From NCBI GenBank assembly GCA_019313385.1, contig JAFDBG010000011.1:1-51072 (forward strand): 51,072 nt of DNA. Reading direction: 5' to 3'. The DNA is from Deltaproteobacteria bacterium. GTDB lineage: Bacteria > Desulfobacterota > Syntrophia > Syntrophales > UBA2210. Both the position numbers and the translations under genes were made by a program. Shown here piece after piece: positions 14,006-39,888 of this stretch. Position 1 is the stretch's first letter, and every line of letters begins with the position of its first letter. The notes beneath the pieces are model-generated. The model was not told the origin of the DNA. It was given only the letters and a program-made list of their open reading frames with translations, and searched no databases.

Positions 14006-14809
14006 GTGAAACAACAAGGGCCGGAAATAGGGAATCTTTCGTCAAGATTCTTCGCTTACACCCAGCTTAAGAAGAGGGATAGCATTCGCACCGGAGAACT
14101 ATCACCAGTATTAGGTATCACTGACTCACAGGAACGTGACCTGCTCCGTCGTCTGTCACGCTCCGGCTGGATTGTCAGGCTGAAACGCGGAGTATATCTT
14201 GTGCCTTCCCGCATACCGGCCGGTGGCAAGTATAGTCCCGGCACCGCCTTGATTCTTAAGAAGCTAATGGAGGAAACTGGTGGTAAATATCAGATTTGCG
14301 GACCAACGGCGTTCAATTTCTATGGCTTTGATGAACAGATTACAAACGTTACTTATGTTTACAATAACCGTATTTCAGGAAGTCGTTCAATCGGGAACTT
14401 AGCGTTTCAATTCATAAAAATCTCTGATGAACGCCTTGGATCAATCAATATTCTGCGTACCCCCGAAGGCGTTGAAGTTAATTATTCTTCAAAAGCGAGG
14501 ACCCTTATGGATGCCGTCTACGACTGGTCCCGCTTCAATAGTTTGCCCCGAGGGTATGACTGGATCAGCCAGGAAGTTAAAGGAGATCTTAAATTTGCAG
14601 CTGAATTGGTCGAGACTACCGTTCAGTACGGTAATCAGGCCACAGTCCGGCGAATAGGGTATTTGTTAGATACTCTTGTCCAAAATTCGAGAACCATAAA
14701 TAAGCTCCAATGTCGGCTAAGTGATTCTAAAGCCTTGATTCCCTGGATTCCTGTCAATCCCCCAAAGGGAACAGCAAACCGCAAATGGGGGGTGATTGTT
14801 AATGGATGA
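14006..14809 (+). CDS. Type IV TA AbiEi-family antitoxin
   Basis: N-terminal wHTH (LLRRLSRSGWIVRLKRGVY), TAFNFYG, RTLMD and RRIGYLL motifs; coupled to an AbiEii-like gene. Confidence 0.8.
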   Translation: MKQQGPEIGNLSSRFFAYTQLKKRDSIRTGELSPVLGITDSQERDLLRRLSRSGWIVRLKRGVYLVPSRIPAGGKYSPGTALILKKLMEETGGKYQICGPTAFNFYGFDEQITNVTYVYNNRISGSRSIGNLAFQFIKISDERLGSINILRTPEGVEVNYSSKARTLMDAVYDWSRFNSLPRGYDWISQEVKGDLKFAAELVETTVQYGNQATVRRIGYLLDTLVQNSRTINKLQCRLSDSKALIPWIPVNPPKGTANRKWGVIVNG

Positions 14810-15683
14810 GGTGAATTTTCCATATCCCCACAACACAGATGGCGACATTTTTCGAGAGTCCCTGGCACATTCTGAAGCTACTACAGGATTTACAGCAACC
14901 CTGATTGAAAAGGATTACTATTGCTCTTTGGTTCTTCAATACCTTTTTGATGGTGACACATCGCTGGTGTTTAAAGGAGGAACCTGTCTCAGCAAGGTTT
15001 ACGCAGGATTCTACAGGCTCAGTGAGGATTTGGACTTAATTATCCCGGTTACTCCAGATACATCCCGCGAGCAGAGACGTGCCGAGACAAAACCGATTAA
15101 GCGACTGTTTGATGAACTGCCGGCAGTAATTCCCGGGCTTGCGATTTCAGAAGCATTCAGAGGTCATAACGAATCTCGCCAATATATCGGGCAGCTTGAA
15201 TATTGGTCATCGGTGATTGATAAGCAGGAAAGGATTAAGATTGAAGTCGGAGTACGTGAACCTCTGCTTAAAACGCCGGTCTCCAGTCCTGCACGCACAA
15301 TTGCTGTAAATCCATTTAGTGGTCAACCTCTCCTCCCAGTTTTTACTATTCGTGCAATGGCAGTTAGAGAGGCTTACGCAGAAAAGGTTCGGGCGGCTCT
15401 GACGAGAAAAGAGCCTGCGATCCGGGACTTCTTCGATCTTTCATATGCTGTTCGTGAAATGGGGCTGGACTTCTCTGATCCTGACTTTCTGGGCATGGTG
15501 AGGGCTAAACTCAGAGTACCGGGCAATTTCCCCGTTAACGTTTCTGCGGATCGCAAACATGAGCTTGATCGGCAATTAAAAGGTCAGTTAAAGCCGGTGC
15601 TTCGTTCAGCAGATTTTATCAGGTTCAGCCTGGATGAAGCTTTCGATCTTGCATGCAGTATCGCGGAGGCCATATCGGTTTAG
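14802..15683 (+). CDS. AbiEii/AbiGii nucleotidyltransferase toxin
   Basis: IEKDY, FKGGTCL, RLSEDLD, AEKVRA and RDFFD motifs. Confidence 0.88.
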   Translation: MDEVNFPYPHNTDGDIFRESLAHSEATTGFTATLIEKDYYCSLVLQYLFDGDTSLVFKGGTCLSKVYAGFYRLSEDLDLIIPVTPDTSREQRRAETKPIKRLFDELPAVIPGLAISEAFRGHNESRQYIGQLEYWSSVIDKQERIKIEVGVREPLLKTPVSSPARTIAVNPFSGQPLLPVFTIRAMAVREAYAEKVRAALTRKEPAIRDFFDLSYAVREMGLDFSDPDFLGMVRAKLRVPGNFPVNVSADRKHELDRQLKGQLKPVLRSADFIRFSLDEAFDLACSIAEAISV

Positions 15684-15981
15684 CTATTCTGCCGAGTGTC
15701 TGTCTGCAAACGGAGTCAACAAGCGCATTAGCAATTATTGGACGTGTAAGGGTGGCATCGGTATCATTGAAGGACATACCATCGAAGCCTTACCCATCGG
15801 CACCAGCGGCAATACTTCTTGACATATAACGGTAATAGGTTTAACCGGTTAGCAGATTCTGTCAGGTTTTTAATGTATAAAGCGTGCTTGTGACCGGATC
15901 AAACTATTATTGCGGTTGCCGGGACGAAAAATGTGGTGTGCTTTCAATCCGGTTTCGCGCTCCGGACGGTAATACTGACAT

Positions 15982-16956
15982 ATGAATAAACAAATAAATA
16001 CAGGTGAGATAGTCATATATCAAACGGAAGATGGTCAGACATCTTTCGATGTTAATCTGGCGGAGGATACTGTATGGCTTGATGCTCATCAGATGGCGGG
16101 ACTTTTTCAAAGGGACAGAACCGTTATTCTCAGGCACGTAAGAAATATCTATAAAACCGGTGAATTGTTGCACGATCCAACCTGTGCAAAAATTGCACAG
16201 GTTGCCCAGGACGGCAAAAAAAGGGTAATGAATTTCTGTAGGTTATCGTGTCAATTCATTGCGAGGCACCCAGTTTCGTGTCTGGGCCAACAGAATACTC
16301 AAAGAGTACCTTGTCACTGGTTATGCCCTGAATGAAAAAAGGTTGCAGTCACAGATCGAAAAATACGAAGCGCTTAAACAATCGATCAGTCTTATTGATG
16401 ATATCGTTGATCGCAAACTGCTCTCCACGTCTGAATATCCGAAGGCCTCCTGAGGGTTATTGGTGATTTCAGCTATGCCCTGGATACACTCGATCGATAC
16501 GATTACGGCAAGCTGGAACTGGCTCGCGTATCTGAACGTACAGCGAAACGAATTTCATATGAAGAAGCTAAAGGCGCGATTAAGAAAATGCTGGGAAAGT
16601 TTGGTGATTCCGCCCTGTTTGGACGTGAAAAGGATAATTCGTTCAGAAGCTCTCTGGACACGCTTTACCAGACTTTCGACGGCAAGGATCTCTATCCCAG
16701 TATCGAAGAAAAGGCAGCACATCTTCTGTATTTCATTGTGAAAAATCACTCATTCGTAGACGGGAACAAACGTATCGCCGCCGCTATTTTTACCTGGTTT
16801 CTTGAACGGAATGGCTTGCTCTACAGAACTGACGGAACAAAACGCATAGCGGACAACGCTTTGATCGCGTTGACGTTGATGATTGCCATGAGCGATCCGA
16901 AGGAAAAGGACGTCATAGCGAAGATAATTATCAATCTCATAAATAAGGACAATTGA
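15982..16956 (+). pseudogene. RhuM-like N-terminus plus Fic/Doc fusion, frameshifted
   Basis: TVWL..QMA.LFQRDRTVI.RH, then VGYRVNS.RGTQFR.WA in a second frame, then the Fic motif HSFVDGNKR in a third; breaks near 16237 and 16440. Confidence 0.8.
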
Positions 16957-17005
16957 TCCGAAGGTATTTTCCCATTGATATTCTTGGCGTTAATTGATTT
17001 GTGAT

Positions 17006-17024
17006 GTCATTCCGGCGAAAGCCG
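17006..17024. repeat. Partial GTCAT-type REP palindrome
   Basis: gtcattccggcgaaagccg; related inverted copy at 41731-41783. Confidence 0.55.
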
Positions 17025-17403
17025 AGAGTAAAGGGGGACAGTATGAACCTCCCCCAGTTTAACGGACACTTCAAAAAATATACGGGTGCGTATACATGCG
17101 TATACAATGGAGAAGAAAGGATATTAATATACCAGCATTCTGTAAAAGAAATTGAGTTTCCATTCAATTTAGCACATATACGCAGAATTGAATATGAAAA
17201 CAGCGCAACTGGAGGACGGAAACTTGAAGAAGAATTGAAGGAAACTCTGGAGCATGTACTATCCCCGAAACTTCACGCTTAAGCGGCTGGACTATGACTG
17301 GCAATTTGCGGGCACTCATTACCAGCCTGTTGGCCCGGTTATGTTTTCAATCAAGCTCGGCACTCCAGACGTACAAGCAGAATGATGGAAAAAGGATAAT
17401 TCA

Positions 17404-19614
17404 ATGGCAAGACTGACCGAACAGGAACAACAGGAGATTATCCGCTTTATCGAGGCGGGTAAACCGCTGCCGGACAAATACCGTTTCCTCTTATTCGAGG
17501 ATAAGCGCGAGGTGGAACTGGTCTGGAATGGGAAGACAAGCGAGGTGTGCAACATCGTTCTACCGTTTCAGGTGATTGAGCAGGTGGATGAACCGCGGGC
17601 CGAGAAGCCGGAGGACACAAAACCAGCCGAGCCCCTCTTCGAATGGGCTGGTATCTCCCTGGACAATCGTGGACGTCAGCTCAAGGGCTGGACAAATAAA
17701 CTTATCTGGGGCGACAACAAGCTGATTCTCGCGTCACTGAAAAACGGGCCGCTGCGCGAGGAGATCGAAGCCCAGGGCGGGCTGAAACTGATCTACATCG
17801 ATCCGCCCTTCGACGTGGGCGCGGATTTTTCTATGGACATCGAAATCGGCGGCGACACCTTTACCAAGAAACCCAATATCCTCGAAGAGATCGCTTACCG
17901 CGACACCTGGGGCAAGGGAGCTGATTCCTTTATTGCCATGATCTACGAACGGCTTGTACTGATGCGCGATCTGCTGGCGGTAGACGGGAGTATTTATGTG
18001 CATTGCGATTGGAGAGTGAATAGCTATATTCGTTTGGCGTTGGATGAGGTGTTTGGCAGCACAGGTTACGTGAGTGAGATAGTTTGGAAAAGTGGTGTCA
18101 TTAAAGGCGCCAGGGGGAAATCAAAAAAATTTGGTAAGTTAGTGGACTATCTATATCTGTATGCAAAATCTGAAAGCTACTTATTTAACAATGTGTACAA
18201 ACAGCATGACCTGGGGAGCAAGAATAATAAATTTGTTCATAAAGACAAAGACGGAAGAATATATAGTAGGGATACACCTTTAGGTGATTATAGCGAGGAA
18301 AGCATTAAGGAGTTTGAACGACAGGGAAGAATATATGTAACTAGGAATGGGGGACGGCAACTTATCCGATTTTTGGATGAAGTGTCTGGCTTAACAGTTG
18401 GGGAGTTGTGGGACGACATTAACCCGATAAATCAAATAGCCAATGAACGATTGAACTACCCAACCCAAAAACCAGAAGCCCTTCTCGAACGTATCATCAA
18501 AGCTTCATCCAACGAAGGCGATCTTGTTGCCGACTTCTTCTGCGGCTCCGGCACCACGGCCGCCGTCGCCGAAAAACTTGGCCGCAAGTGGATCGTATCC
18601 GACCTGGGGAAGTTCGCCATACACACCACCCGCAAGCGCATGATCGGTGTTCAACGATCGCTCAAGGATGATGGCACAGACTACCGCGCCTTTGAGATTC
18701 TCAACCTGGGCAAGTACGAGCGGCAGCATTATATCGGCGCCAACCCGAACCTGCGTGAGGAAGAACAGCAGAAACAAATAGAAGAAAAGGAGGCTGCGTT
18801 TCTCGACCTGATCCTGCGCGCCTACCGGGCGGAAAAGGTGGAGAATTTCGCCTGTTTCAACGGCAAGAAGGCCGGACGGCTCGTCGCCGTCGGCCCGGTG
18901 AATCTGCCCGTGACGCGCCTCTTCGTCGAAGAGATCATCCTGGAATGCCGCAAGAAGCACATTACGAAGGTCGATATCTTGGGCTTTGAATTTGAGATGG
19001 GGTTGTTCCCGAACGTCCTGGACGAAGCACGCGCCAAGGGGATCGACATCGCGCCGAAATATATCCCGGCCGATGTGTTCGACAAACGGGCGGTTGATAA
19101 GAACCAGGTGGTATTTCATGATGTGGCGTTTATCGAGGTCAAGCCGCATGTGAAGAAGAAAAGCGCGGCAGTGGAATTGACCGATTTTTCGGTTTTCTAT
19201 TCGCAGGACTCTATCGCCAACGCCGAGGCGACCATCAAGAATAAGGGCAATCGCATAGTTGTGGAGAAGGGACAGATCGTGAAGGTGAGCAAGGATAAGG
19301 ACGGTATCGTCAACCGTGAAGTGCTCACAAAGAACTGGACCGACTGGATTGATTACTGGTCGGTGGACTTCGACTTCGAGAGCAAGCGCGAGATCATCCG
19401 TGTGAAGGACGAAGACAGCGGCGAGTGGGAAGAACGGTGGACGGGAGATTTTATCTTTGAGAACGAGTGGCAGTCCTTCCGCACGAAGAAAGACCGGTCG
19501 CTGGAACTGAAGAGCGTTTTCCACGAATGCCCGCCGGGGAGGCGCAAGATCGCGGTCAAGGTGGTGGATATCTTCGGCAACGACACAATGACCATTGTTG
19601 AGGTGAACGTGTGA
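17404..19614 (+). CDS. Site-specific N6/N4 DNA methyltransferase (type III Mod-like)
   Basis: LIYIDPPF catalytic motif, YPTQKPE, and [12 protein letters not shown]-binding motif; upstream of a Res-like gene. Confidence 0.92.
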
Positions 19615-20455
19615 ACTTTTCTTTACCTTTACCGGAGATTCGTCACGATAAGGCAGGTTTTGAAGCCCTTATTTCCCTGTATGGGCAAACCAGAGATTGT
19701 CTTTTTGATGACATTGACGTTGACATGAGCGCAACAAGTTGGTTCGATGCTGATATGTGTGCGTCATTTGGCGCGATCCTTTACCGTTTAAGCAAAAACT
19801 TGAACACGGTAAAATTGACAAATGTCGAGAAAAATGTTGTAAGTATTCTGTCAAAAAATGGATTTATGAGCAGTTATGAATTCCCTATCAGCGTTTTGAT
19901 GTTAAAGACGATCGTTATTTTGCTGGTTATATAGAGAACGAATTCATGCAGCGCTCGGAAATCCCAGCCATGTCGCCAGGGTTGCAGAAGAAGTTCCGAG
20001 AGAGCATTTTTGAAATTTTCAGCAATGCAGTGTTGCACTCGAAGACAGAGATGGGAATTTTCAGTTGCGGGCAGTTTTTCCCAAAACGAGACAGGCTTGA
20101 TTTCTCTGTCACGGACCTGGGAATTGGCATCCGTCAGAATGTAAACGATAGCACCAAACTTGATCTCTCACCAGAAAAAGCCATCAGATGGGCTACGGAA
20201 GGGCAAAATACTACGAAACGCGGGCAAATTCCTGGCGGGCTAGGTTTGAAGTTGCTTGGTGAGTTTATTGATTTGAATGGCGGGTGTATTCAAATTGTTT
20301 CGGATGCCGGTTATTGGAGGCGGGAAAGAGGTGAAATTTCTACCGCCAGATTAAGTCTGCCCTTCCCTGGAACAGTGGTAAGCGTTGAAATTAATACTGC
20401 TGACAAGCAATCCTATGCACTCACTTACGAATTATCGGAAACCGACATATTTTGA
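19611..20455 (+). pseudogene. GHKL/HATPase_c ATP-binding protein, frameshifted near 19878
   Basis: EIFSNAVLHS, DLGIGI and GGLGL boxes in ORF 19946-20455; that frame extends upstream (IPYQRFDVKDDRYFAGYIENEF) to the break with ORF 19611. Confidence 0.72.
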
Positions 20456-20465
20456 GGTAATCATT

Positions 20466-20837
20466 ATGAGTAAGAACTTGGAACTTTCCATATTTGAAGT
20501 CGTAGGCAACCCGCTTTGCGTTGCCTCCAGCGATGGACAGAAGGTTTATGATCGCGTTATGGCTGCTCTGAAAGAAGGGCGAAATGTCACGCTTTCATTT
20601 CGCAATGTCACCACGCTGACATCAGCCTTTCTTAATGCGGCGATTGGTCAATTATATGGCGTATTCAGCGAAGATCAAATACGCGCCTTGCTCACGGTAG
20701 AAGATATGCAGCAAGATGATATTGCGCTTTTGAAACGCGTGGTTGAAACGGCCAAGCAGTACTTTAAAGACCCACAGAAATTTGATCAGGCTCTTCGGGA
20801 AACGATGGAGGACGATAACGATGACTCACAGGACTGA
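20466..20837 (+). CDS. STAS-like domain protein (DUF4325-like)
   Basis: DGQKVY, VTLSFRNVTTLTSAFLNAAIGQLY pattern; GAGG RBS. Confidence 0.75.
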   Translation: MSKNLELSIFEVVGNPLCVASSDGQKVYDRVMAALKEGRNVTLSFRNVTTLTSAFLNAAIGQLYGVFSEDQIRALLTVEDMQQDDIALLKRVVETAKQYFKDPQKFDQALRETMEDDNDDSQD

Positions 20838-21363
20838 GGAAATCTCCACTTATGATTTCAAGTCTTCGGAGGCATTATTGCTGGATGCCAATATCTGGTT
20901 GTTTGTCTATGGCCCACAGAAACCGACTGACACGAGGGTAACTACCTACTCTGAAGCCTTAGCAAAGATTCTCGCAGCTAAGAGTTGCATTTACATTGAT
21001 GTGCTGATTGTTTCCGAATTTGTGAACACTTACGCCAGATTGAAGTGGAGGCTTCTACCGGAGTCGTCCCGGCCCATATATTTCAAACAATTTCGCAAGA
21101 GCACGGAGTTTAACCCTGTTGCTCGAGACATTGCCGCTGATGTCAAACGTATGTTGCAACATTGTACACGAGTAGAAAGCGGTTTTGAGTCACTTGCGAT
21201 CGATACCCTGGTTGACGAATATGCGGCGGGTGATTCAGATTTTAACGACCAGATTCTAACCGCTCTGTGTAAAAATAAGGGGTTAACGATGGTAACAGAC
21301 GATGCAGATTTCAAGGGACAGGGCATTCCCATCATCACCGCAAACAAACGATTGCTTTCCTGA
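20821..21363 (+). CDS. PIN domain protein
   Basis: LLDANIW, VSE, DFND and VTDDADF acidic tetrad; GGAGG RBS. Confidence 0.82.
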   Translation: MTHRTEEISTYDFKSSEALLLDANIWLFVYGPQKPTDTRVTTYSEALAKILAAKSCIYIDVLIVSEFVNTYARLKWRLLPESSRPIYFKQFRKSTEFNPVARDIAADVKRMLQHCTRVESGFESLAIDTLVDEYAAGDSDFNDQILTALCKNKGLTMVTDDADFKGQGIPIITANKRLLS

Positions 21364-21369
21364 CATATT

Positions 21370-21400
21370 ATGGCTTTACACAAGGACTTCCCTGATTCGC
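21370..21400 (+). repeat. Diverged copy of the first 31 bp of the res gene
   Basis: 28/31 identical to 21762-21792; all three differences are synonymous (MALHKDFPDS). Confidence 0.9.
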
Positions 21401-21403
21401 AGT

Positions 21404-21472
21404 AAGCTCGCGGTGAAGATGGTGGATATCTTCGGCAACAACACGATGACCATTGTTGAGGTGATGGTATGA
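21404..21472 (+). repeat. Diverged copy of the last 69 bp of the mod gene
   Basis: 61/69 identical to 19546-19614; KLAVKMVDIFGNNTMTIVEVMV* versus [22 protein letters not shown]. Confidence 0.9.
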
Positions 21473-21762
21473 GTAAAACGAAAAAGATCGAAGCCTTGAG
21501 TCGGGAAGTGTCGTTGTATCAGCATCGCGAGGAAGATTTTATTTCTCTGACGGATATTGCCCGATATCGTGATGCGGAGCGTGGTGACTACATCATCCAG
21601 AACTGGATGCGAAACCGGAATACCATCGAATTTCTCGGTATATGGGAGCAGCTGAACAACCCCGGTTTTAATTCCATCGAATTCGATGGAATTAAAAAAC
21701 AGGCGGGATTGAACAGTTTTTCCCTCGATCATGGTATTAATAATCTGGAAGGAGGGGAATAA
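21469..21762 (+). pseudogene. KilA-N domain protein, probably internally deleted
   Basis: DFISLTDIA..NWMRNRNTIEFLGIWE..NP.FN..EFDG motif ending abruptly after GLNSFSL. Confidence 0.7.
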
Positions 21763-24446
21763 TGGCGCTACACAAGGACTTCCCCGATTCGCCGCACGCT
21801 ATTCTCGATCCAGACATCCGCTGGTTCCCTGCCGATGAGGCCTTGCGGGAAACGAGTATGGAAAAACTCATGCCGCCTCTGGTGTCGCAACTACGAAAGA
21901 AAGTTAAGGAGTTCCGTGACGGCGGTTACGTCGGCGCGACCGATACCAGCAAGAGTCTTCTCAACTGGTGGTTCAATACTCCGCACATGCTGGAGCAGGC
22001 AGGCGGGATCATGACCCAGTTTGAGTACTATTTTGCCCAGCGCGAGGCATTGGAAACAATCATTTATATGTATGACGTTGCAGGTGTTCAGGATAAGCAC
22101 GACATGATGCGCTTCGACGCGACCGGCCTTGTATCTGGAAGCATGTTCGACGAGACATGGCGGCGCTTTGTAATCAAGATGGCCACCGGAAGCGGCAAGA
22201 CAAAGGTGCTAAGTCTTGCGCTTGCGTGGAGTTTCTTCCACAAACTCTACGAGCCGGACTCTCAACTGGCACGCAACTTCCTGGTAATCACGCCCAACAT
22301 CATCGTGCTGGATCGTATCTATAAGGATTTTCAAGGACAGCGTATTTTCTTTGAAGACCCGGTGCTTCCAGACAACGGTGTGGATGGTCACAACTGGCGC
22401 GATGATTTTCAACTCACCCTTCACAAGCAAGACGAGGTCACCATCACCAGACCCACCGGTAATATCTTCCTCACCAATATTCACAGGGTTTATTCGGGCG
22501 AGGATATCCCGCCGTCGCCGGACGATGAAAATACCATGGACTATTTTCTGGGCAAACGGCCCACCGGGGCGACCACGGATTCCAAGGTGGATCTGGGTAT
22601 GATTGTCCGGGATATCGACGAGCTTATGATCTTGAATGACGAGGCACACCACATCCACGATCCGCGCATGGCCTGGTTTAAATCCATCGAAGACATTCAC
22701 AACCGGCTACTTCAAAAAGGTGGATCGCTTGCCCTGCAGGTGGATACGACGGCCACACCCAAACACAACAACGGCGCTATCTTCGTGCAGACCATCGCCG
22801 ATTATCCACTGGTGGAAGCGATTTCTCAGAACGTAGTCAAACACCCGGTACTGCCCGACGCGCCCAGTCGTGCCAAGCTCTCCGAGCGGCAAAGTGCGAA
22901 ATACACCGAAAAGTACGCAGATTATATTGATCTGGGCGTGATCGAATGGCGCAAGGCGTATGCCGAGCACGAAAAGGTGGGCAAAAAGGCAATACTTTTT
23001 GTAATGACCGATGACACACGGAACTGTGATGACGTCGCTGAGTATCTGGAGGGTCACTATCCCGACTTAAAGGACGCTGTCCTGGTTATCCATACAAAGA
23101 ACAACGGCGAGGTTTCCGAGGTGCAGTCAGGTAAAGCCAAAGAAGTATTGGAAGGCTTACGCAAGCAGGCCAATGAGATTGACAACGCCGATAATCAGTT
23201 CAAGGCCATAATCTCCGTGATGATGCTCAAAGAGGGGTGGGATGTTAAGAATGTCACCACCATCGTGGGCTTGCGCGCCTATTCTGCCAAGAGCAACATT
23301 CTCCCGGAACAGACGCTGGGTCGTGGACTTCGGAAGATGTATCCGGGGGATGTGCCCGAGCAAGTCAGTGTAGTCGGCACGAATGCCTTTATGGAGTTCG
23401 TAGAATCCATCCAGGCCGAAGGAGTTGTCCTGGAACGTAAGGCGATGGGGGAAGGAACTGCACCCAAAACGCCTCTGGTAGTTGAGATTGACAAAGAAAA
23501 TGACAAAAAAGACATTGATGCGCTGGATATTGAAATCCCTGTTCTTACACCACGTGTCTACCGCGAATATAAAAACCTGGGCGACCTGAACGTGGCCGCG
23601 CTGGACCATCAAAGCGTGGCATATCTGCAATTCAGTGAGGAAGAACAGCGGGAAATCGTATTCAAGGACATCACCAACGGTGAGGTCACCCATACGACGA
23701 TCCTCGACACGGTCGGTGTCGCCGATTATCGCAGCGTGATCGGCTATTTTGCGCAAACCATCATGAAGGATCTGCGGTTGGTCGGCGGCTACGACGTTCT
23801 CTATGGCAAAGTCAAAGCATTTGTACGGGATGAGTTGTTTGACCGCCCGGTAGAGCTTGAAAGTCCTAACACCCTGCGCAACCTTTCCGAATTGCCGGCT
23901 ACCAGGATGGTTATAGAAACTTTTAAGAAGGCAATAAACGCTCTTACCGTGCAAGACAAAGGCAACGCCGAAATCCGCGATACTATCAAGCTCCGCCAGA
24001 CCCGCCCGTTTGTAGCCAAAGATCAGGGTTACCTGATCCCGAAGAAAAGCGTCTTCAACCGAATCATTGGTGACAGCCAACTGGAGCTGCAATTCGCCAA
24101 CTTCCTGGAAGGTTGCGGCGACGTGGTTTCTTTCGCTAAAAATTACATGGCCGTGCATTTCAAGCTGGACTATGTGAACTCCGATGGTGACATCTCCAAC
24201 TATTACCCGGATTTTATGGTCAAGCTGTCGGACAAGCGGATTGTCATTGTCGAAACCAAAGGACGGGAAGATTTGGATGTGCCGCAGAAGATGACTCGGC
24301 TCCGTCAGTGGTGCGAGGACATCAATCGAGCTCAAACGGAAGTGAGGTACGATTTTGTTTACGTGGACGAAGAGAGTTTTAAAAAATATGAACCGAAATC
24401 GTTTGCGGATTTACTGACCGGCTTTCGAGAATATAAAGAACAATAA
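21762..24446 (+). CDS. Type III restriction Res-like subunit (SF2 helicase plus PD-(D/E)xK nuclease)
   Basis: MATGSGKT, DEAHH, TATP, EGWDV, QTLGRGLR and YYPDF..VETKG motifs. Confidence 0.92.
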   Translation: MALHKDFPDSPHAILDPDIRWFPADEALRETSMEKLMPPLVSQLRKKVKEFRDGGYVGATDTSKSLLNWWFNTPHMLEQAGGIMTQFEYYFAQREALETIIYMYDVAGVQDKHDMMRFDATGLVSGSMFDETWRRFVIKMATGSGKTKVLSLALAWSFFHKLYEPDSQLARNFLVITPNIIVLDRIYKDFQGQRIFFEDPVLPDNGVDGHNWRDDFQLTLHKQDEVTITRPTGNIFLTNIHRVYSGEDIPPSPDDENTMDYFLGKRPTGATTDSKVDLGMIVRDIDELMILNDEAHHIHDPRMAWFKSIEDIHNRLLQKGGSLALQVDTTATPKHNNGAIFVQTIADYPLVEAISQNVVKHPVLPDAPSRAKLSERQSAKYTEKYADYIDLGVIEWRKAYAEHEKVGKKAILFVMTDDTRNCDDVAEYLEGHYPDLKDAVLVIHTKNNGEVSEVQSGKAKEVLEGLRKQANEIDNADNQFKAIISVMMLKEGWDVKNVTTIVGLRAYSAKSNILPEQTLGRGLRKMYPGDVPEQVSVVGTNAFMEFVESIQAEGVVLERKAMGEGTAPKTPLVVEIDKENDKKDIDALDIEIPVLTPRVYREYKNLGDLNVAALDHQSVAYLQFSEEEQREIVFKDITNGEVTHTTILDTVGVADYRSVIGYFAQTIMKDLRLVGGYDVLYGKVKAFVRDELFDRPVELESPNTLRNLSELPATRMVIETFKKAINALTVQDKGNAEIRDTIKLRQTRPFVAKDQGYLIPKKSVFNRIIGDSQLELQFANFLEGCGDVVSFAKNYMAVHFKLDYVNSDGDISNYYPDFMVKLSDKRIVIVETKGREDLDVPQKMTRLRQWCEDINRAQTEVRYDFVYVDEESFKKYEPKSFADLLTGFREYKEQ

Positions 24447-24602
24447 GGTGAGCACACCACGTTTCAATCCAATCCCGCACGATCGTAGCGTCCCCGCTCT
24501 GTGGGGGCACAGAGGCTCCGCGCTATGCTTCTTAAAACAAGTTACTTTTCATTATAATGCTGACGTGTTGCCATAGCGGAGCTTTTTACGAAGTTGTCAT
24601 TT

Positions 24603-24646
24603 CCTTACTCCGGCATGGGCCTTACCAAATCGCGGATTTTTCCGGT
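24603..24646 (-). repeat. Displaced copy of the patatin-like gene 3' end (left boundary of the RiPP island)
   Basis: 41/44 identical to 41939-41982; encodes TGKIRDLVRPMPE* versus TGKIRELVRPMPE*. Confidence 0.88.
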
Positions 24647-24807
24647 AAGATATCAACTAATCTTTCCAAATCGGGGGGACTGGTTCATTGAGGGGCGTAG
24701 TGAAGACGATGTTCGAAGGTTCTTGCAATCCGAGGAATTGAAAAAGGCCAGCAAAAAGAGCGTCGTTGTTGAAAAGATTGACACTTACGATACCGCAAAA
24801 TTCTCTA

Positions 24808-25827
24808 TCAGGAAGTAAGGCGCTCCGCACTGTGCAACAATTCGGCGAAGCCCTGTTCTGAAGGAATCCGGGCATAGAGAAAATCGGCGCATCTTCTTTT
24901 ATTTTCAATGCGCTGTTGCAAGGGAAGAACAAGCTCTAGGTACCTCTGGAAAGACTGACCGCAATGGGCCTCGAGAACAGCCTGGGCCGCATACTGCCCT
25001 GAGATTAAGGCTTCATGAATGCCACCTCCCGTCAATGGATCGGTAAAGCCTGCTGCATCTCCTGCCAAAAGAACGCCGTCAGCAGCCGGGGATGTCGCAT
25101 TGTTTCCAATATTTATGGGGGCACCCGAAATTTCAGGCGGTTCTTCCAGATCATATTTCCGAATAAAACAAATCAGGTCCGCCTTTTTGATGTATCGATG
25201 ATCACGACAATAGATCCCGACGTTGATATGGTCCTTTTTGGAACATATCCAGCCGTAGCCGTTTTTTATTGCCGTAAAATCAAAACAGATCTCTTCTTGC
25301 GGAATATGCGGACAATGGGGCACGTCGGCTTCCAGGGCAAAGGCATAGGCAGGTTGTACTTCAGGCCAGAAAATTTTCCTGACGGTACTTATGGCGCCAT
25401 CGCATCCAATAACCACATCTGCCCGTAGTTCTTCGCCCTCTTCTGTGCGTATCAGGACGCCACCGGAAAGGTCAATTCTCGCAATCCCTCCGATTCGCTT
25501 GAAGAGAACACCCTGTTGCAACGTTTGCATTAAGCAGTAGTGGTCAAATTCCTCCCGTGATGCCAGGGAAATATTCTCTGAAATATACTCGCTTCTCTCA
25601 TCATTTAGAATTATACGGCTTCGGCTCACTTTTCGCTGAAGAACCGGTGCGACGGAGTAGCGAAGATTTTTGACAACCGAGGCCGGAATCATTCCCGCAC
25701 AGGACTTTTTCCGCGGGAAGTCTTTCTTGTCGAGCAGAAGGACCTTTTTCCCGGCTGCACCCAGGTCGTAAGCGGCGGCACATCCCGCAGGTCCTGCGCC
25801 GACTATAATTACATCAAAGGCTGCCAT
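24808..25827 (-). CDS. Geranylgeranyl reductase-family FAD-dependent oxidoreductase
   Basis: DVIIVGAGPAG, FPRKKSCAG, GCDGA.S.VR, GYGWI and GDAAGFTDPLTGGGI motifs. Confidence 0.85.
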   Translation of the reverse strand: MAAFDVIIVGAGPAGCAAAYDLGAAGKKVLLLDKKDFPRKKSCAGMIPASVVKNLRYSVAPVLQRKVSRSRIILNDERSEYISENISLASREEFDHYCLMQTLQQGVLFKRIGGIARIDLSGGVLIRTEEGEELRADVVIGCDGAISTVRKIFWPEVQPAYAFALEADVPHCPHIPQEEICFDFTAIKNGYGWICSKKDHINVGIYCRDHRYIKKADLICFIRKYDLEEPPEISGAPINIGNNATSPAADGVLLAGDAAGFTDPLTGGGIHEALISGQYAAQAVLEAHCGQSFQRYLELVLPLQQRIENKRRCADFLYARIPSEQGFAELLHSAERLTS

Positions 25828-28329: not shown

Positions 28330-29823
28330 TTAATCTCCAGCGAAGGAAAAATTCAATCGTTCTTCCGTGAAAAGGCCCCTGTCGTCGTTCTCAAAAAGCC
28401 AGGCAATCACCTTTTTATTAACCCATCGCTTTTGGCTGCACCACTCCTGGTTTGCGTCAAACATGCTCCCGTACTCGACATAGGAAGATAGGGGACAATC
28501 TCCGGCACAGTTATAGCGTATAAAGCAGTCGTCGCAGGCCCGCATGTTTTCTACCGATCTTTGGGCGAGGAATTCGGTTTTATCTTTGTCTATGTTCACT
28601 CGACCCGTCACAGGGTCCACTTTGCCGTAAAGAAACAGCTCTGATCCAGGTTCCGATTCATTCTGTATCTCGGTGCATGCGGTAATATTACCATCTGAGG
28701 TCAGTACAAAATTGATGCCGCAGGCGCCGCAATAAAATCGTTTTGCCGGTCCCAAGGCATACGCGCCTTTTCCCTTAATACGGACACCATGCATAGTTCC
28801 ATGTATGAACGCCTTATAAAACTGTTCACTGTATGCTGACGGATCGGGCGCCTTTGTGGATGAAGAAATCGCCCTTTCCGACATTTTAAGAGGTTCAAAA
28901 TGTATCGTTTGTATTCCTTCCCGTGCTGCCAGCTCAACCGTTTGCAACATTTTCGGCAATGAATAGGCTGTGACGGTCGAACGAATCTCGACTCTTCTCC
29001 CCCCTTTTGCAAGGGCGCGGATATTCTCAATGACGGTTTTGTAGCTTTCGCGGTTGCCGCGAAAGGGCCGCTGCAGGTTTTGCACTTCTTCTGACCCATC
29101 GAGACTGAATCTGCACTCAATGTCATGATCACAGATGAAACGCCTCACCGAATGGTGAAACGTGCCGTTTGTGGTGACTTTAACAAGCGGTTTTATCCAG
29201 TTGAGACGACACTTTTCTTCGAAAATTTCCACGATTTCACAAAACAGATTCTTGTCAAGGGTGGGTTCGCCGCCTCCGTGAAGAAAGAGACAGGCCGTAG
29301 CGCTGGTCGCAAAGATGTCGCTGAAAAATTTTTCAAGTGTCTTCTCGTAGATCGAAAGGTCTAAAGCCTTTTCCTTCAGATGCGCGGGTGCGTTTGAGTG
29401 GCAGTATTGACATTGAAGGTTGCAGGCGCTTTGAGGATAAACGGTAAGTACAGGAATCACAGGGGACTTCATGGCCGTCTCAAAGGGATCTGCCGGCGTT
29501 TCCATATCGGAAATAATCCCCGCATCGCAGAGATGGTGGAGGGCGGGTAAGAATTCTTCCTCTTGAAGATTAAACTGTCTCATGATGTCATGGACAGTTG
29601 CACCGCCATCAAATTTTTCCAAGACCCTTTGCAAAAAAGGACTAATCCTGCAACAGGTTCGAGCAAAAGGAGCGTGAAGGTAATAATTCCCCTCCTCCTC
29701 AAAGAGGAAAACCTCTTTCCCTATTGTGGACGATAACACCGAATTCGAATCAAACCGTTCGGATTCTAGTCTTGTCGGGCGATTACCTTTTAGTTTAATG
29801 ATACTAAGATGCGCTTCTTTCAC
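28330..29823 (-). CDS. Radical SAM/SPASM peptide maturase with N-terminal RRE-like domain
   Basis: CNLQCQYC, HGGGEP, TTNG and FSLDG; SPASM YCGAC..AC..CDDCFIRYNCAGDC..C; directly downstream of the precursors. Confidence 0.88.
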   Translation of the reverse strand: MKEAHLSIIKLKGNRPTRLESERFDSNSVLSSTIGKEVFLFEEEGNYYLHAPFARTCCRISPFLQRVLEKFDGGATVHDIMRQFNLQEEEFLPALHHLCDAGIISDMETPADPFETAMKSPVIPVLTVYPQSACNLQCQYCHSNAPAHLKEKALDLSIYEKTLEKFFSDIFATSATACLFLHGGGEPTLDKNLFCEIVEIFEEKCRLNWIKPLVKVTTNGTFHHSVRRFICDHDIECRFSLDGSEEVQNLQRPFRGNRESYKTVIENIRALAKGGRRVEIRSTVTAYSLPKMLQTVELAAREGIQTIHFEPLKMSERAISSSTKAPDPSAYSEQFYKAFIHGTMHGVRIKGKGAYALGPAKRFYCGACGINFVLTSDGNITACTEIQNESEPGSELFLYGKVDPVTGRVNIDKDKTEFLAQRSVENMRACDDCFIRYNCAGDCPLSSYVEYGSMFDANQEWCSQKRWVNKKVIAWLFENDDRGLFTEERLNFSFAGD

Positions 29824-29937
29824 AGGATATCCTTTGTGGGAAAGCAGTGAGTGAAAAACCTCGTGAGGTAATTCTGAATGTGAATAAAATGATTGAAACG
29901 CAGAAAACCGTTTTTTTTCCTTTCAATGCACCCGAAA

Positions 29938-30027
29938 TAAAAAGAACCGCAACAGAGATCAGCGGTCAAAAAATCCTTAATATTACTGCACCCCGACAAT
30001 CCTTTATCTGAAAATTGCCGGGGTGCA
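29938..30027 (-). terminator. Tandem hairpins / probable terminator after the precursor genes
   Basis: tgcaccccg...cggggtgca (29987-30027), then accgc-11 nt-gcggt flanked by A runs (T-tract on the minus strand). Confidence 0.6.
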
Positions 30028-30066
30028 TGGAAATAGGAAAAAGCTACAAGAAAACGGCAGGTCTTC

Positions 30067-30309
30067 TTAATTTTTTCCGCAGGTGTCAGCGACACACATG
30101 TAGCTGCCGCCGCCGGCTACAGCATCCAGATCCGCGTCTGACAATTCGCCACCACGGCATTCGTTGAGCTCTGCCTGGGTAAAGTCAAATCCAGCTCCCA
30201 GAATAACTTTCTTCTTTTCTTCCACGGACTTTGCTTCATTGATCGATTTTGCAAACGCTTCATCCGCCTTATACTTGGCCAAAAACTTCTGTGCGCTTTC
30301 TACTGGCAT
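30067..30309 (-). CDS. Nif11-like leader RiPP precursor 1 (core GSYMCVADTCGKN)
   Basis: GFDFT..EL and ELSDADLDAVAGG double-glycine leader; AGGAGGAG RBS. Confidence 0.92.
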   Translation of the reverse strand: MPVESAQKFLAKYKADEAFAKSINEAKSVEEKKKVILGAGFDFTQAELNECRGGELSDADLDAVAGGGSYMCVADTCGKN

Positions 30310-30379
30310 TTCTCATCTCCTCCTGTTTTTAAAGGTAAGTTGCACTATCTTCCAGGCAGCGTAAAGGTCATTGGATAAC

Positions 30380-30619
30380 TTAATCCATCGCACATGTATC
30401 CGCTACGCACATGTAACTGCCGCCGGCTACAGCATCCAGATCCGCGTCCGACAATTCGCCGCCACGGCATTTGTTGAGCTCTGCCTGGGTAAAGTCAAAT
30501 CCCGCTCCCAGAATAACTTTCTTCTTTTCTTCCACGGATTTTGCTTCATTGATCGATTTTGCAAACGCTTCATCCGCCTTATACTTGGCCAAAAACTCTT
30601 TTGCGCTTTCAACTGACAT
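30380..30619 (-). CDS. Nif11-like leader RiPP precursor 2 (core SYMCVADTCAMD)
   Basis: Near-identical leader to precursor 1; ELSDADLDAVAGG; AGGAGG RBS. Confidence 0.92.
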   Translation of the reverse strand: MSVESAKEFLAKYKADEAFAKSINEAKSVEEKKKVILGAGFDFTQAELNKCRGGELSDADLDAVAGGSYMCVADTCAMD

Positions 30620-30679
30620 TTTGTTTCCTCCTTTTGAAGCAGGTTAAATAGTATTACCCGTAACGTACGTCACAGGCAA

Positions 30680-30761
30680 TTAACCGAACTGGTTAAAGCA
30701 AAATATTAAATTGCCACCGGCCACGGCGTCCAGATCCTCGTCGGACAATTCGCCACCGCAT
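30680..30761 (-). pseudogene. Third precursor remnant (CGGELSDEDLDAVAGG-NLIFCFNQFG*)
   Basis: Manual minus-strand translation; GAGGAG RBS plus an out-of-frame ATG abut the leader C-terminus. Confidence 0.8.
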
Positions 30762-30947
30762 CTTAAAACTCCTCTTTAAGGTGAACGATATTTTCTACAA
30801 GAGAAATAATACGTTTCCATGAATAGATTATAATCTTGCTTTTTGCAATACAAAAAAGAAAATCGAGGTAAAAATATCATGTTGAGATGGGATTTATAGC
30901 ACTATTCTGCGCGTGGGGATATATTTTTCACCAATTAGCCGCAATTT

Positions 30948-32111
30948 TTAAACACATATCCTTTCAGCGTACCTCAACGCTTTTTGAAGGATCGAGAGGG
31001 CTTTCTCAGAGGACAATTCTTCGATGGTAAAACAGGTTAGGATCATGATCGCAATGGCCTTCCACCGTTCTGTTTCGAAATTGTCTCTATGCTGGCGGTC
31101 AAATTCCTCAAGATTTTCCGAAGCCTTCTTTGCCAGGGTCTGAAGAATTTTAAAGGAGCCGTCCGAAAGAGGAGGCTTCCCCCGATAGTTCTCGAGCCGC
31201 CCTCCTTCCCGGTATTCGGGAAAATGTTCCAGTCCCAGAAAGCGCAAAAACCAGTCCGCCCGGTAACGGCCTGTGGCCGCCACAATCCCTATGTAATCGG
31301 CTATAAGTTCATCAATAAGTCGATTTTGCATGGATGAAAAAAGCTGCAGTGTTGCATAGTGAGTGCATTCATGTTCTCGTCGAATGATAAGGGAAAGCCG
31401 CTGCCACTCATCTTCAGAAAGCCCCATTTCAGGAGCCGATACCGCACTATAAGGCCCGTCGCTCAAAATAATGAAGCGATCCTGGTAAAGGTTCTTTTGC
31501 GGGATAATTCGCCTGAACTCCTCCTTCCACTGGTCTTCAGAACAGTTACGGCGATTTTCTGTCTCCCACCGCGCGCGGTATCTGACGATCCTGTCCCAGT
31601 TGTTGTACCCTGTGACGATGGCTGACCCCATGGATTTTGGGATGGGAGCGGGCTCATTCCTTTTGGTGAGAGCCCTGACAAGGGCGACAAACTCTTCCCT
31701 CACCGGGGTGGAAATGATCGGTATGCGCCCGGCAAGGGTCGGATGAATGGTCAGATGGAGAAGGTCAGACCTCTTCAGTTCGAGACCGGTTGCCTGGGGA
31801 ATGTCTTGCGGCGGAACGCCTCTTAGCGTAACGGACCGGTAAAACGACTCTTCGCTGATACCCTTCCTGACCAGAAACCGGAGTTGTACCAGGTGACCCT
31901 TTAAGGAATCAAAGGCACCTTTAATGATGGCCTCCGATTCGTACTTCTCCCAGACGGAAATAAAGGGTTCGTCAGGCAGGGGCAAGGGAGTGATTCGGGA
32001 CAGGCCGGTGTGATCATATGTATTCTCATTATAACGTAAGAGCTCATCCGTTTCAGAATCTGATGCTCCCAGTGATGCGAGCACATGTGCCCTGTAATCC
32101 TGATCTTTCAA
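30948..32111 (-). CDS. Conserved hypothetical protein with HExxH motif
   Basis: Intact 387-aa ORF; REHECTHY followed by DELIAD; embedded in the RiPP operon. Confidence 0.7.
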   Translation of the reverse strand: MKDQDYRAHVLASLGASDSETDELLRYNENTYDHTGLSRITPLPLPDEPFISVWEKYESEAIIKGAFDSLKGHLVQLRFLVRKGISEESFYRSVTLRGVPPQDIPQATGLELKRSDLLHLTIHPTLAGRIPIISTPVREEFVALVRALTKRNEPAPIPKSMGSAIVTGYNNWDRIVRYRARWETENRRNCSEDQWKEEFRRIIPQKNLYQDRFIILSDGPYSAVSAPEMGLSEDEWQRLSLIIRREHECTHYATLQLFSSMQNRLIDELIADYIGIVAATGRYRADWFLRFLGLEHFPEYREGGRLENYRGKPPLSDGSFKILQTLAKKASENLEEFDRQHRDNFETERWKAIAIMILTCFTIEELSSEKALSILQKALRYAERICV

Positions 32112-32128
32112 AGCTTACGCCCCAACCT

Positions 32129-33286
32129 TTACTGACTTTTGTAATATTCAAAGCGGCCATTTCTGGCCTCTTTGATAAAGATCTCATCCTCTACAATATC
32201 ACCGTTTTCGGCATACGTATGAAAACCCGTAGCCCCTTCCCAACCCTTCGTGGCGCGCAAGGCATCTGCAATGCGTGAGGGCACAGTGGATTGGGCCTTT
32301 TCCATAGCCCAGGCAAGGAGCTTCATTGCGTCGTAACCTTGGGCGGCCTTGGAATCAGGGATGGTATTGTATTTATCTGAAAAGGCCTTTACAAAATGCT
32401 GGACCTTTTTTTCTTTTCGTTCCGGATAAAACGGGGAACCTACAAATACATTGATGGCACTTTCGCCCGCACTCTTAAACAGTTCAGGCGAATCCAGTCC
32501 TTCCCCTCCTATGATGGGGACCTTGATTCCCAGACTCCTGGCTTCTTTAATAATATAACCCGCCTGAGGAGTAATACCGCCAAGGAAAACGGCATCGAAG
32601 GAAAAGTTATCGCTCCAGTAGGCAAAATCCTTTTGGAAATTTTTTATGTCACTCAAGGAGGTATAGTCGATCCGATCGACTATGGCGATTCCTTTTTTTT
32701 CAGCCTCCATCTCAAAGGCATCGGCCAATCTCTGTCCATACTCATCACTGGAATGGTATATTACCATGTTTTGATACCCTTGCCCGTCACAAAAATCGGC
32801 CAGTTCCCGGCCGAAGACGGAATCGCTTGGGATATTACGGAACACACATTTAAAACCCCGTTCGGTCAATCTGGGGGTTGTCGATGTTGGGGAAAGCATG
32901 AGCAGATCATAGTATTCGTAAATAATGGATGTGGCGTAGGATATATATGAATTATAATGTCCTATCATCGCGACCATATCTATATTTTCCGCGAATTGCT
33001 GCGCTACAATCTGTCCCTTGGTTACCGAAGCCTCGTCATCCCTCTTCACCACATGAATCCTTCGGCCAAGAACCCCTCCTTCATTATTGATCTCTGACAG
33101 GGCAAGCTCTATCCCCTGCCACAAGCCATTTTTTATCTCCGACCATGGCGCGGCAGCGCCTATGACAATCGGGCCAGTCGATTTCTCCGCCCGTAGGGCC
33201 CTTTTTTCACCGGGGTTGTCCCCACCCGTACAGGCCATTATGCCTAAAAGGAACACTGCAAGCCCTATTAAATATCTTTTTACCAT
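32129..33286 (-). CDS. LivJ/K-like periplasmic binding lipoprotein
   Basis: Lipobox IMAC; EINNEGGVLGR, GHYNS, DEYGQ and QGYDA motifs. Confidence 0.85.
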   Translation of the reverse strand: MVKRYLIGLAVFLLGIMACTGGDNPGEKRALRAEKSTGPIVIGAAAPWSEIKNGLWQGIELALSEINNEGGVLGRRIHVVKRDDEASVTKGQIVAQQFAENIDMVAMIGHYNSYISYATSIIYEYYDLLMLSPTSTTPRLTERGFKCVFRNIPSDSVFGRELADFCDGQGYQNMVIYHSSDEYGQRLADAFEMEAEKKGIAIVDRIDYTSLSDIKNFQKDFAYWSDNFSFDAVFLGGITPQAGYIIKEARSLGIKVPIIGGEGLDSPELFKSAGESAINVFVGSPFYPERKEKKVQHFVKAFSDKYNTIPDSKAAQGYDAMKLLAWAMEKAQSTVPSRIADALRATKGWEGATGFHTYAENGDIVEDEIFIKEARNGRFEYYKSQ

Positions 33287-33393
33287 AGCGTCTCCTTTTG
33301 CCGTGCTCTAATCCATAAATCAACAATCACCGCCCGCAAGGTCGTAGAGGTAATCATTAAGATTGATAGTAGCATGTAGGTATATTTCATAAC

Positions 33394-36303: not shown

Positions 36304-36390
36304 AAAAGAAAAGTTTCCTGTGTAGAGTCTTTATCCTCAACAACTGCGGTTTTTATGCCTCAGGATAATACTCCCAACCGCGTGGGAACA

Positions 36391-38562: not shown

Positions 38563-38564
38563 CT

Positions 38565-39851: not shown

Positions 39852-39888
39852 GGTCGATAAACCTCCTTGTTAATAAGTGTGACGATGC

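Follow-up and report, generated by a model that had tools for sequence, protein, structure and literature searches.

Stacked gene cassettes and the scars that separate them in a predicted Type III restriction-modification operon

Two cassettes between mod and res

We examined a predicted Type III restriction-modification (RM) operon in which two gene cassettes lie between the methyltransferase gene mod and the helicase-nuclease gene res, separated by a short spacer that joins a copy of the start of res to a copy of the end of mod. The operon is located in a 51,072-nucleotide (nt) stretch of DNA, hereafter the window, which is the entire contig C6 (GenBank JAFDBG010000011.1) of a 2.15-Mb metagenome-assembled genome (MAG) of a Syntrophales bacterium (GCA_019313385.1; 138 contigs, 93.6% complete, 0.58% contamination). 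The genes of positions 17404–24446 are all on the plus strand, in the order mod, HATPase_c (in two pieces), DUF4325/STAS, PIN, a 103-nt spacer, KilA-N and res. This gene content had been given in a preliminary description of the sequence, and the Pfam and PADLOC matches bear it out.

The mod gene (17404–19614, plus strand) is intact and encodes a Type III DNA methyltransferase of 736 amino acids, matched by Pfam N6_N4_Mtase (E = 6e-39) and over its whole length by PADLOC MTase_III (E = 3e-106). Residues 208–345 are hypervariable, with an amino-acid pair identity of 0.23–0.49 among 70 relatives, as in a variable target-recognition region. The last 69 nt of the gene (19546–19614, plus strand), which recur downstream, contain a Shine-Dalgarno-like GAGGTG, and the stop codon overlaps the start of the first cargo gene (GTGA). 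Downstream on the same strand, res (21762–24446) is also intact and encodes a Type III helicase-nuclease subunit of 894 amino acids that combines a superfamily-2 helicase motor (Pfam ResIII, E = 2e-14; PADLOC REase_III, E = 1e-19) with an endonuclease domain at residues 761–853. Judged from sequence, the locus is a Type III RM operon of a family passed widely between phyla.

Cassette A consists of three genes. The first is a HATPase_c-type pseudogene (19611–20455, plus strand), split into open reading frames (ORFs) 19611–19934 and 19946–20455 because a 34-nt deletion between 19878 and 19879 shifts the frame. The 34 letters are kept in the related locus L005 (related loci carry L numbers, genomes G numbers and sequencing runs X numbers) and in contigs of runs X1, X2 and X6, and L005 carries an intact form of 292 amino acids. 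The HATPase_c match on the second ORF (Pfam E = 1.2e-5) scores 26.1 bits, which is below the cut-off of 26.4; that of L005 scores 21.3 bits. The second gene (20466–20837, plus strand) encodes a STAS-like DUF4325 protein of 123 amino acids (Pfam E = 3.7e-16), and the third (20821–21363, plus strand) a PIN-domain protein of 180 amino acids (Pfam E = 2.6e-6) that is 91% identical to the L005 protein and 63% identical to that of L026. Apart from the HATPase piece, which weakly matches DrmA (E = 6.6e-5), these genes have no PADLOC match, and the HATPase-STAS-PIN trio is not in PADLOC 2.0. Its make-up may resemble that of an RsbW/RsbV-type partner switch governing a PIN nuclease.

Cassette B (21469–21762, plus strand) is a single ORF of 97 amino acids matched by PADLOC PDC-S22 (E = 1e-34) and Pfam KilA-N. 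The match covers only positions 1–86 of the 281-position PDC-S22 model and, by this alignment, the ORF has lost its interior in frame, retaining the first ~86 and the last ~14 codons. In contigs of other runs, relatives show loose ends within the cassette at 21716–21719 and at 21758. To judge from the frameshifted HATPase gene and the KilA-N gene collapsed in frame, the array in the window is decaying; neither defect had been noted in the preliminary description.

The spacer between the cassettes

A repeat search matched 19546–19614 to 21404–21472 over 69 nt with 88% identity (repeat D1, 61/69) and 21367–21408 to 21759–21800 over 42 nt with 83% identity (repeat D2). In 200 mononucleotide shuffles of 17000–25000 the best matches were 37/69 and 21/33, compared with 61/69 and 29/33 observed. 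The left half of the spacer (21370–21402, plus strand) is the first ~33 nt of res, identical to the true res start at 29 of 33 positions, and opens an 11-codon ORF (21370–21405). The right half (21404–21472, plus strand) comes from another mod allele, of which it is the final 69 nt, and its stop codon overlaps the ATG of cassette B. We refer to such a res-start/mod-end spacer as a scar. The preliminary description had placed copies of both gene ends between the cassettes, and both repeats lie far above the shuffles. Its length for the mod end, 69 nt, was correct, whereas the res start, given there as 31 bp, runs for ~33 nt up to the joint.

The geometry of starts and stops is also as had been described, with GTGA (19611–19614) and ATGA (21469–21472) overlapping mod-type stops. 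The PIN gene stops 6 nt before the res-type ATG at 21370, and the TAA stop of the KilA-N ORF overlaps the ATG of res (TAATG, 21760–21764). The internal mod end differs from the resident one at 8 nt; by reading, about half of the differences are synonymous and the rest change I to L, V to M, D to N and N to M. In a contig of run X2 the mod body leads directly into this mod-end allele and KilA-N, with 14 differences in 248 nt. The internal copy is thus part of a different allele, as had been proposed.

The pairing of cassettes in the window could in principle be produced by the assembler. In such a chimera, which would concern this contig only and which we regard as improbable, two strains would have been joined by a crossover inside the 69-nt mod end, one carrying mod, HATPase/STAS/PIN, a scar and other cargo (as L005 does) and the other carrying mod', the KilA-N remnant and res. 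The window belongs to a MAG of 138 contigs, and congeneric genomes carry both L005-like and mod-S22-res loci; however, the bin contains no second copy of mod, res or KilA-N at 0.58% contamination, and housekeeping genes lie on both sides of the contig. Both single-cassette forms are found in other samples, where contigs join 21376 to 21769 (X1, X2) and 19543 to 21402 (X2). Identity to L005 falls from 94% in the PIN gene and res fragment to 85% in the mod-end copy, a drop that natural recombination predicts equally. By reading, the resident and internal mod ends share no exact run longer than ~19 nt, so the switch would need another strain with a mod end identical to the internal copy. Counting against the array as assembled, the cassette pairing in the window has no read support, the best run sharing 0.14 of the sampled words; the four runs compared are Logan contigs of relatives at 85–95% identity, in which stretches without cover carry no meaning, and the nearest relatives are 75–90% identical over the parts. 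The scar itself occurs independently in L005 and in a 2857-nt contig of run X6 that covers 20475–21474 and is thereafter unlike the window, and arrays are present in numerous other assemblies, chromosome-level records among them. The array phenomenon is independent of this contig; the particular pairing of cassettes in the window would need support from reads.

The mod-res junction in related operons

For a survey of one genome per species, the best 80 of 647 stretches encoding Mod relatives were kept. These relatives are 57–81% identical and come from MAGs labelled as many phyla and one archaeon. In 63 loci (window included) mod is followed by res on the same strand, with a gap of 6–23 nt in 19 and of 218–4546 nt in 44. 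Where there is no cargo, a GGAGG-like motif precedes an overlap of the mod stop with the res start (TAATG). The loaded loci, 44 of the 63, carry variable genes nested on the same strand between the two defense genes, and the cargo of the window is likewise all on the plus strand. The proposal that the mod-res junction is a cargo slot is supported by this tabulation, in which 19 of 63 loci are empty and the intervening genes are very varied, their content differing between loci rather than being invariant.

PADLOC models match ORFs of the gap in 29 of 42 scanned loci. The cargo recognized in this way includes PDC-S22 (ten full-length copies), PDC-M19A/B, PDC-S13, PDC-S02, PDC-S09, PDC-M04, IetA/S, E2+ThsB and RmrA-like genes; Pfam and PADLOC add PDC-M47AB, PDC-S04, HepT/nucleotidyltransferase pairs, GIY-YIG, PD-(D/E)xK and zeta-toxin-like genes. 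A cargo protein of ~537 amino acids in L037, L048, L051, L053 and L057 gave weak PADLOC matches to pAgo-associated models, and a designation as SIR2 on that basis was rejected; checked on L037, it has Pfam Schlafen/AlbA_2 plus HATPase_c_4. Most of the slot cargo consists of catalogued candidate defense genes, PDC-S22 itself being a candidate model.

The type of cargo is scattered across the res tree, with 29 changes over 55 rows. The empty locus L038 and the PDC-S22 locus L061 are sisters on this tree, with end branches of 0.024 and 0.028. Genome G017, which belongs to the genus of the window and is the source of L005, contains two loci of the family, L152 (= L005) with the trio and PDC-M19AB, and L150 with PDC-S22.

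A metagenome scan with the PIN protein returned 59 loci, 52 of which extend at least 150 nt 3' of the PIN gene and could be sorted by layout. The PIN gene leads directly into at least 100 amino acids of res in 26 of the 52, and in 4 it is followed by a res start that reaches the contig end, which leaves the layout undecided. In 5 a res-start fragment is followed by a mod-end copy, that is, an array; another 5 have a res-start fragment alone, and the remaining 12 are without a res start. At least 40 of the 52 judgeable loci place the trio in the Type III slot. As res or its start comes after PIN in most loci, the trio is for the most part a guest of this operon. In L111 (6700–8537), and also in L112, L128 and L139, the trio is preceded by merely the last 56–61 nt of mod with no mod upstream; in L111, 6.7 kb of upstream sequence is visible, and a PAS histidine kinase and an M48 peptidase lie nearby. 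In these four loci the trio seems to have left the operon together with its mod-end leader.

Several related loci show further arrangements. In L009 (3608–8000) a collapsed mod, with residues 1–26 joined out of frame to 696–736, lies upstream of a complete mod-PDC-S13-res operon and is followed by PDC-S22, PDC-S19 and two more ORFs; the array can therefore extend to the left of mod as well. Copies of the first 31–44 codons of mod are found 0.7–1 kb upstream of the complete gene in L023 (3216–4060) and L033 (8001–9068), mirroring the res-start fragments, and in L033 small ORFs lie between the copy and the complete mod. In L030, L033, L045, L046, L080 and L082, res precedes mod by 3–4 kb on the same strand, and other genes occupy the interval, including a ThsB-like TIR gene in L046; among the three that were annotated (L033, L045 and L046), further cassettes lie 3' of mod. 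The last ~30 nt before res in L003, L021, L031 and L092 are similar to the PDC-S13 3' end found in L008 and L009, with no intact S13, and look like further decayed cassettes.

Recurrent scars and their breakpoints

We searched the related loci with profiles of the mod end and res start, followed by inspection of the sequences. The preliminary description had predicted that res-start/mod-end spacers would recur, and at least eight different forms were found, including some in three-cassette arrays. The joint of the window (33 nt of res, last 72 nt of mod) is also present in L005. A joint of 155 nt of res to the last 139 nt of mod forms the first spacer of L086 and that of L089, and one of ~75 nt of res to the last 139 nt of mod forms the second spacer of L086 and that of L154. 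L103 and L105 join 53 nt of res to the last ~66 nt of mod, L104 joins 134 nt to the last 75 nt, and L023 joins 8 nt to the last 66 nt. In L026, 153 nt of res is followed by mod residues 454–501 and then by residues 714–736, giving two joints within one spacer, and in L123, 32 nt of res is followed by a piece from the middle of mod. Mod-end copies without a recognizable res piece also precede cassettes in L035, L051, L046, L045 and L033; a res-start remnant considered for the L046 spacer was dropped, the similarity by eye being too weak to claim. L045 and L046 are chromosome-level MAG records. L086 contains three units, HATPase-STAS-PIN, PDC-M19, and PDC-S04 with S13. In L089 (3640–3650) the start codon of PDC-M19A behind the scar is CTG rather than ATG.

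The joints lie, by reading, at strings common to both genes, microhomologies of 2–7 nt such as CGCA, TTCCG and CGC/AAG. L005 and L086 form a size series. Both have HATPase-STAS-PIN and then PDC-M19 in the same order, with cassettes 87–90% and spacer ends 85–91% identical, and the short spacer of L005 equals the long spacer of L086 minus an internal piece. In two cases the same joint precedes different cassettes. The 33|-72 joint is followed by the PDC-S22 remnant in the window, by PDC-M19AB in L005 and by unlike sequence in the X6 contig, and the ~75|-139 joint by PDC-S04 and S13 in L086 and by GIY-YIG in L154, the two spacers being identical at 195 of 216 positions. Single genes have also collapsed while keeping both of their ends, namely mod in L114, L009 and G004:C217, res in L100, and KilA-N in the window. 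In L092 a deletion extends from the res start into the next cassette.

The slot had been proposed to be exchanged through conserved gene ends, a wording that the alignments do not support. Codon alignments of 70 mod and 55 res sequences give a nucleotide pair identity of 0.74 in the last 23 codons of mod, compared with 0.72–0.79 in the rest of the gene, and 0.68 in the first 23 codons of res, compared with 0.62–0.76. Special conserved handles at these ends were accordingly rejected; the ends are no more conserved than the rest, synonymous sites included, and show no excess of shared codons. The spacer breakpoints vary and lie at the microhomologies.

The same observations bear on a dedicated cassette system, in which a recombinase encoded elsewhere would recognize the mod 3' end, alone or together with the res 5' end, as a site comparable to the attC of integrons. 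Same-strand, promoter-less cassettes are indeed separated by a recurring element, and several mod-end copies begin within -62 to -75 of the stop; over the whole set, however, the breakpoints are spread on the mod side over -38 to -139 and beyond, and on the res side over 8 to 155 nt. The trio keeps its 56–61 nt of mod end even in the four loci without an upstream mod (L111, L112, L128 and L139). Nevertheless, the spacer folds as its shuffles do (z = -0.17 as DNA, -0.42 as RNA), with no attC-like structure, no integrase is encoded on the contig, and the gene ends have no excess conservation. Given the fold and the gene ends, nothing points to a dedicated site, and we consider this explanation very unlikely.

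Origin of the scars

We give about an even chance to the reading that the scars are left over from a fusion between two operon versions with different loads, later trimmed by deletion. The mod-res junction acts as a slot for same-strand, presumably promoter-less defense cargo, and two versions with different contents (mod-HATPase/STAS/PIN-res and mod'-cargo-res') would have been joined head to tail. The redundant interior from res to mod' would have been lost by deletions between short microhomologies, leaving ~33 nt from the start of res attached to ~72 nt from the end of mod'. The scars would then shrink stepwise without losing the start codon of res or the stop of mod and its ribosome-binding region, with translation still handed between cassettes. 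A scar would also add a homologous segment inside the array, and with this segment and res as flanks the downstream cassette could be exchanged. We infer the stepwise joining and collapse from the size series, the double joint of L026, the single-gene collapses and the two loci of G017; because that genome holds two differently loaded loci, a substrate for joining exists. The tandem intermediate, the order of the deletions, the coupling of translation and the replacement of cassettes at the scar are our reconstruction.

The preliminary description had set aside a collapse of two tandem RM loci by deletion. We favor this collapse as the origin of the spacer, and it does not exclude the cargo slot. 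Its remark that the cassettes are stacked without a recombinase agrees with the Pfam scans, in which tyrosine recombinase (PF00589) has 8 matches genome-wide and none on contig C6, and in which no recombinase or transposase family was found among the window ORFs scanned.

Fusion and collapse has to be weighed against several observations that count against it. No intact tandem (mod-A-res-mod'-B-res') is present in 144 loci (80 from genomes, 59 from metagenomes and 5 of relatives), which leaves the tandem intermediate hypothetical. The occurrence of the same scar before different cassettes fits later exchange using the mod end of the scar and res as flanks, but it also fits recurrent deletion at a favored microhomology. 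In addition, five genomes in which res lies upstream of mod contain no family tandem, each having one full-length mod and one full-length res plus distant or fragmentary matches.

A route without any tandem stage would account for the absence of tandems. In homology-facilitated illegitimate recombination, which operates in naturally transformable bacteria, one homologous anchor and a microhomology joint insert foreign DNA beside the anchor. An incoming piece with the 3' end of mod', cargo B and res' would be anchored in the resident res, and its other end would be joined by microhomology to the first nucleotides of that res, later deletions merely trimming the product. This one-step insertion yields the exact order observed, and microhomology joints are expected of this process; de Vries and Wackernagel reportedly found such joints in 2002. 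The large donor remnants of L026 (from mod residue 454) and L123 (from ~residue 315) would be the left end of the donor, and the duplicated mod starts upstream of a complete mod, with small ORFs between them (L023 and L033), resemble the same process anchored in mod. However, the size series among close relatives and the two joints of L026 show deletion to be at work under either route, the end structure cannot be distinguished from that left by a tandem, and the route would require hosts competent for DNA uptake. The hosts are uncultured, and the parallel with transformable bacteria is tentative. We consider one-step insertion a serious competitor, though somewhat less likely than fusion and collapse.

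Possible role of the scars

If a scar is read from the res ATG to the mod stop, it forms a mini-ORF, and this is in frame in 5 of 7 distinct res|mod joints (binomial p = 0.045), or in 9 of 13 when the single-gene collapses are added (p = 0.009). No Shine-Dalgarno motif was seen, by reading, between the PIN gene and the res-type ATG, so that translation at this ATG probably depends on the upstream gene. These observations suggest that the scars are kept since they pass translation on to the next cassette.

A further and more speculative proposal, which we think unlikely to be correct, is that the res-start::mod-end mini-ORFs are retained adaptors that make the Type III operon an integrase-free cassette platform. 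Translation would begin anew in such an adaptor behind one cassette and terminate at the start codon of the following one, and the adaptor would also provide a homology handle for swapping downstream cassettes by ordinary homologous recombination with other operons of the family. It would explain why scars are in frame, why the res ATG and mod stop are never lost and why the same scar precedes different cassettes, and it would amount to a simple, recombinase-free construction of multi-cassette operons. The points that tell against a retained function are that the in-frame tallies come from few joints, picked ad hoc after the fact, and that phase-matched microhomologies between coding sequences could yield the same frame bias without selection. 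Moreover, the joint in the window is itself out of frame, its res-type ORF stopping after 11 codons, and coupling through a mini-ORF is not strictly needed, as the mod-end copy has its own Shine-Dalgarno-like GAGGTG.

Genomic neighborhood

Upstream of the operon lie an AbiEi-like gene (14006–14809, plus strand; Pfam AbiEi_4, E = 8e-9) and an AbiEii-like gene (14796–15683, plus strand; Pfam AbiEii, E = 7.7e-28), which form a defense/toxin-antitoxin pair. A short ORF with a Fic/DOC domain (16588–16956, plus strand; 122 amino acids) adjoins the 5' end of mod; its Pfam Fic match (E = 8.4e-13) covers profile positions 22–93 only. Together with the operon, the AbiEi/AbiEii pair and the Fic ORF (14006–16956) make up a small defense islet between thiamine and oxidoreductase genes. 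By Pfam scans the flanks of the operon are chromosomal, with thiamine genes on one side and oxidoreductase and transport genes on the other. A run of genes on the minus strand (28330–41460) resembles a peptide-maturation/export cluster, with a radical-SAM protein, DUF7005, a periplasmic binding protein, two ABC transporters (one with a C39 peptidase domain) and an outer-membrane efflux protein.

Base composition and consensus scans added little. The G+C content is 0.42–0.47 in the cargo, ~0.50–0.55 in most of mod and res and 0.43–0.49 in the flanks, a weak contrast that was not used. Scans for promoter and terminator consensus sites within the operon were uninformative, with 11 sites compared with 10.1 in shuffles and 8 compared with 9.4, respectively.

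Comparison with known systems

Integrons carry tandem, same-strand, promoter-less cassettes, with a recurring junction element between neighbors and expression driven from upstream. Unlike an integron, the array described here has no integrase on its contig and no attC-like fold, and its breakpoints are variable (at least 8 pairs) and lie at microhomologies.

A recombining unit that runs from inside one gene into the next has been described for tandem paralogues, where the unit of evolution comprises the 3' portion of one ORF together with the spacer and the following ORF's 5' portion (Mol Biol Evol 2008, PMC2568036). That case, as presented there, concerns paralogues within one species, whereas the scars studied here hold unrelated cargo between the ends of two different genes. 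The STAS-PIN pair of cassette A corresponds to group PIN.4 of the PIN-like superfamily, listed with function unknown by Matelska et al. 2017 (PMC5499597); cassette A adds a HATPase_c gene to this pair.

An abortive-infection-type gene inside an RM operon and expressed with it has a precedent in PrrC, which is embedded in the EcoprrI Type Ic locus (Payne et al., 10.1101/2024.01.29.577857; EcoSal review, PMC12707154). PrrC, as these sources present it, is one fixed and functionally coupled guest; the content here is variable and stacked, and any functional link to the host enzyme would be hypothetical. The literature searched, including that 2025 review, yielded no description of cargo arrays or of res/mod scars in Type III operons, with subscription journals and bioRxiv supplements outside the search.

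The closest comparison is with the work of Payne, Hughes, Fineran and Jackson (2024; 10.1101/2024.01.29.577857), who described defense genes housed within the operons of Hma, BREX, DISARM and Type I RM and wrote of 'guilt by embedding'. As in their systems, extra defense genes are nested on the same strand within a defense operon, and many of the cargo genes match their PDC models (PDC-S22, M19, S13, S02, S09, M47 and S04). In contrast to the cases in their main text, the host here is a Type III mod-res operon, the cassettes are two or three deep, and they are separated by res-start/mod-end scars. Their text uses 'Type III' once, as 'DRT type III', and 'recombination' not at all, and the supplements may list Type III cases. 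The embedding of defense genes was thus already known, and how the guests arrive and accumulate was left open in that paper, which speaks of a 'genomic sink'. The scars offer a readable record of this process, one suggesting that loci grow when differently loaded versions of a widely transferred operon fuse and the redundant parts are then trimmed. The slot is also a rich and easily mined source of candidate anti-phage genes, such as the HATPase-STAS-PIN trio.

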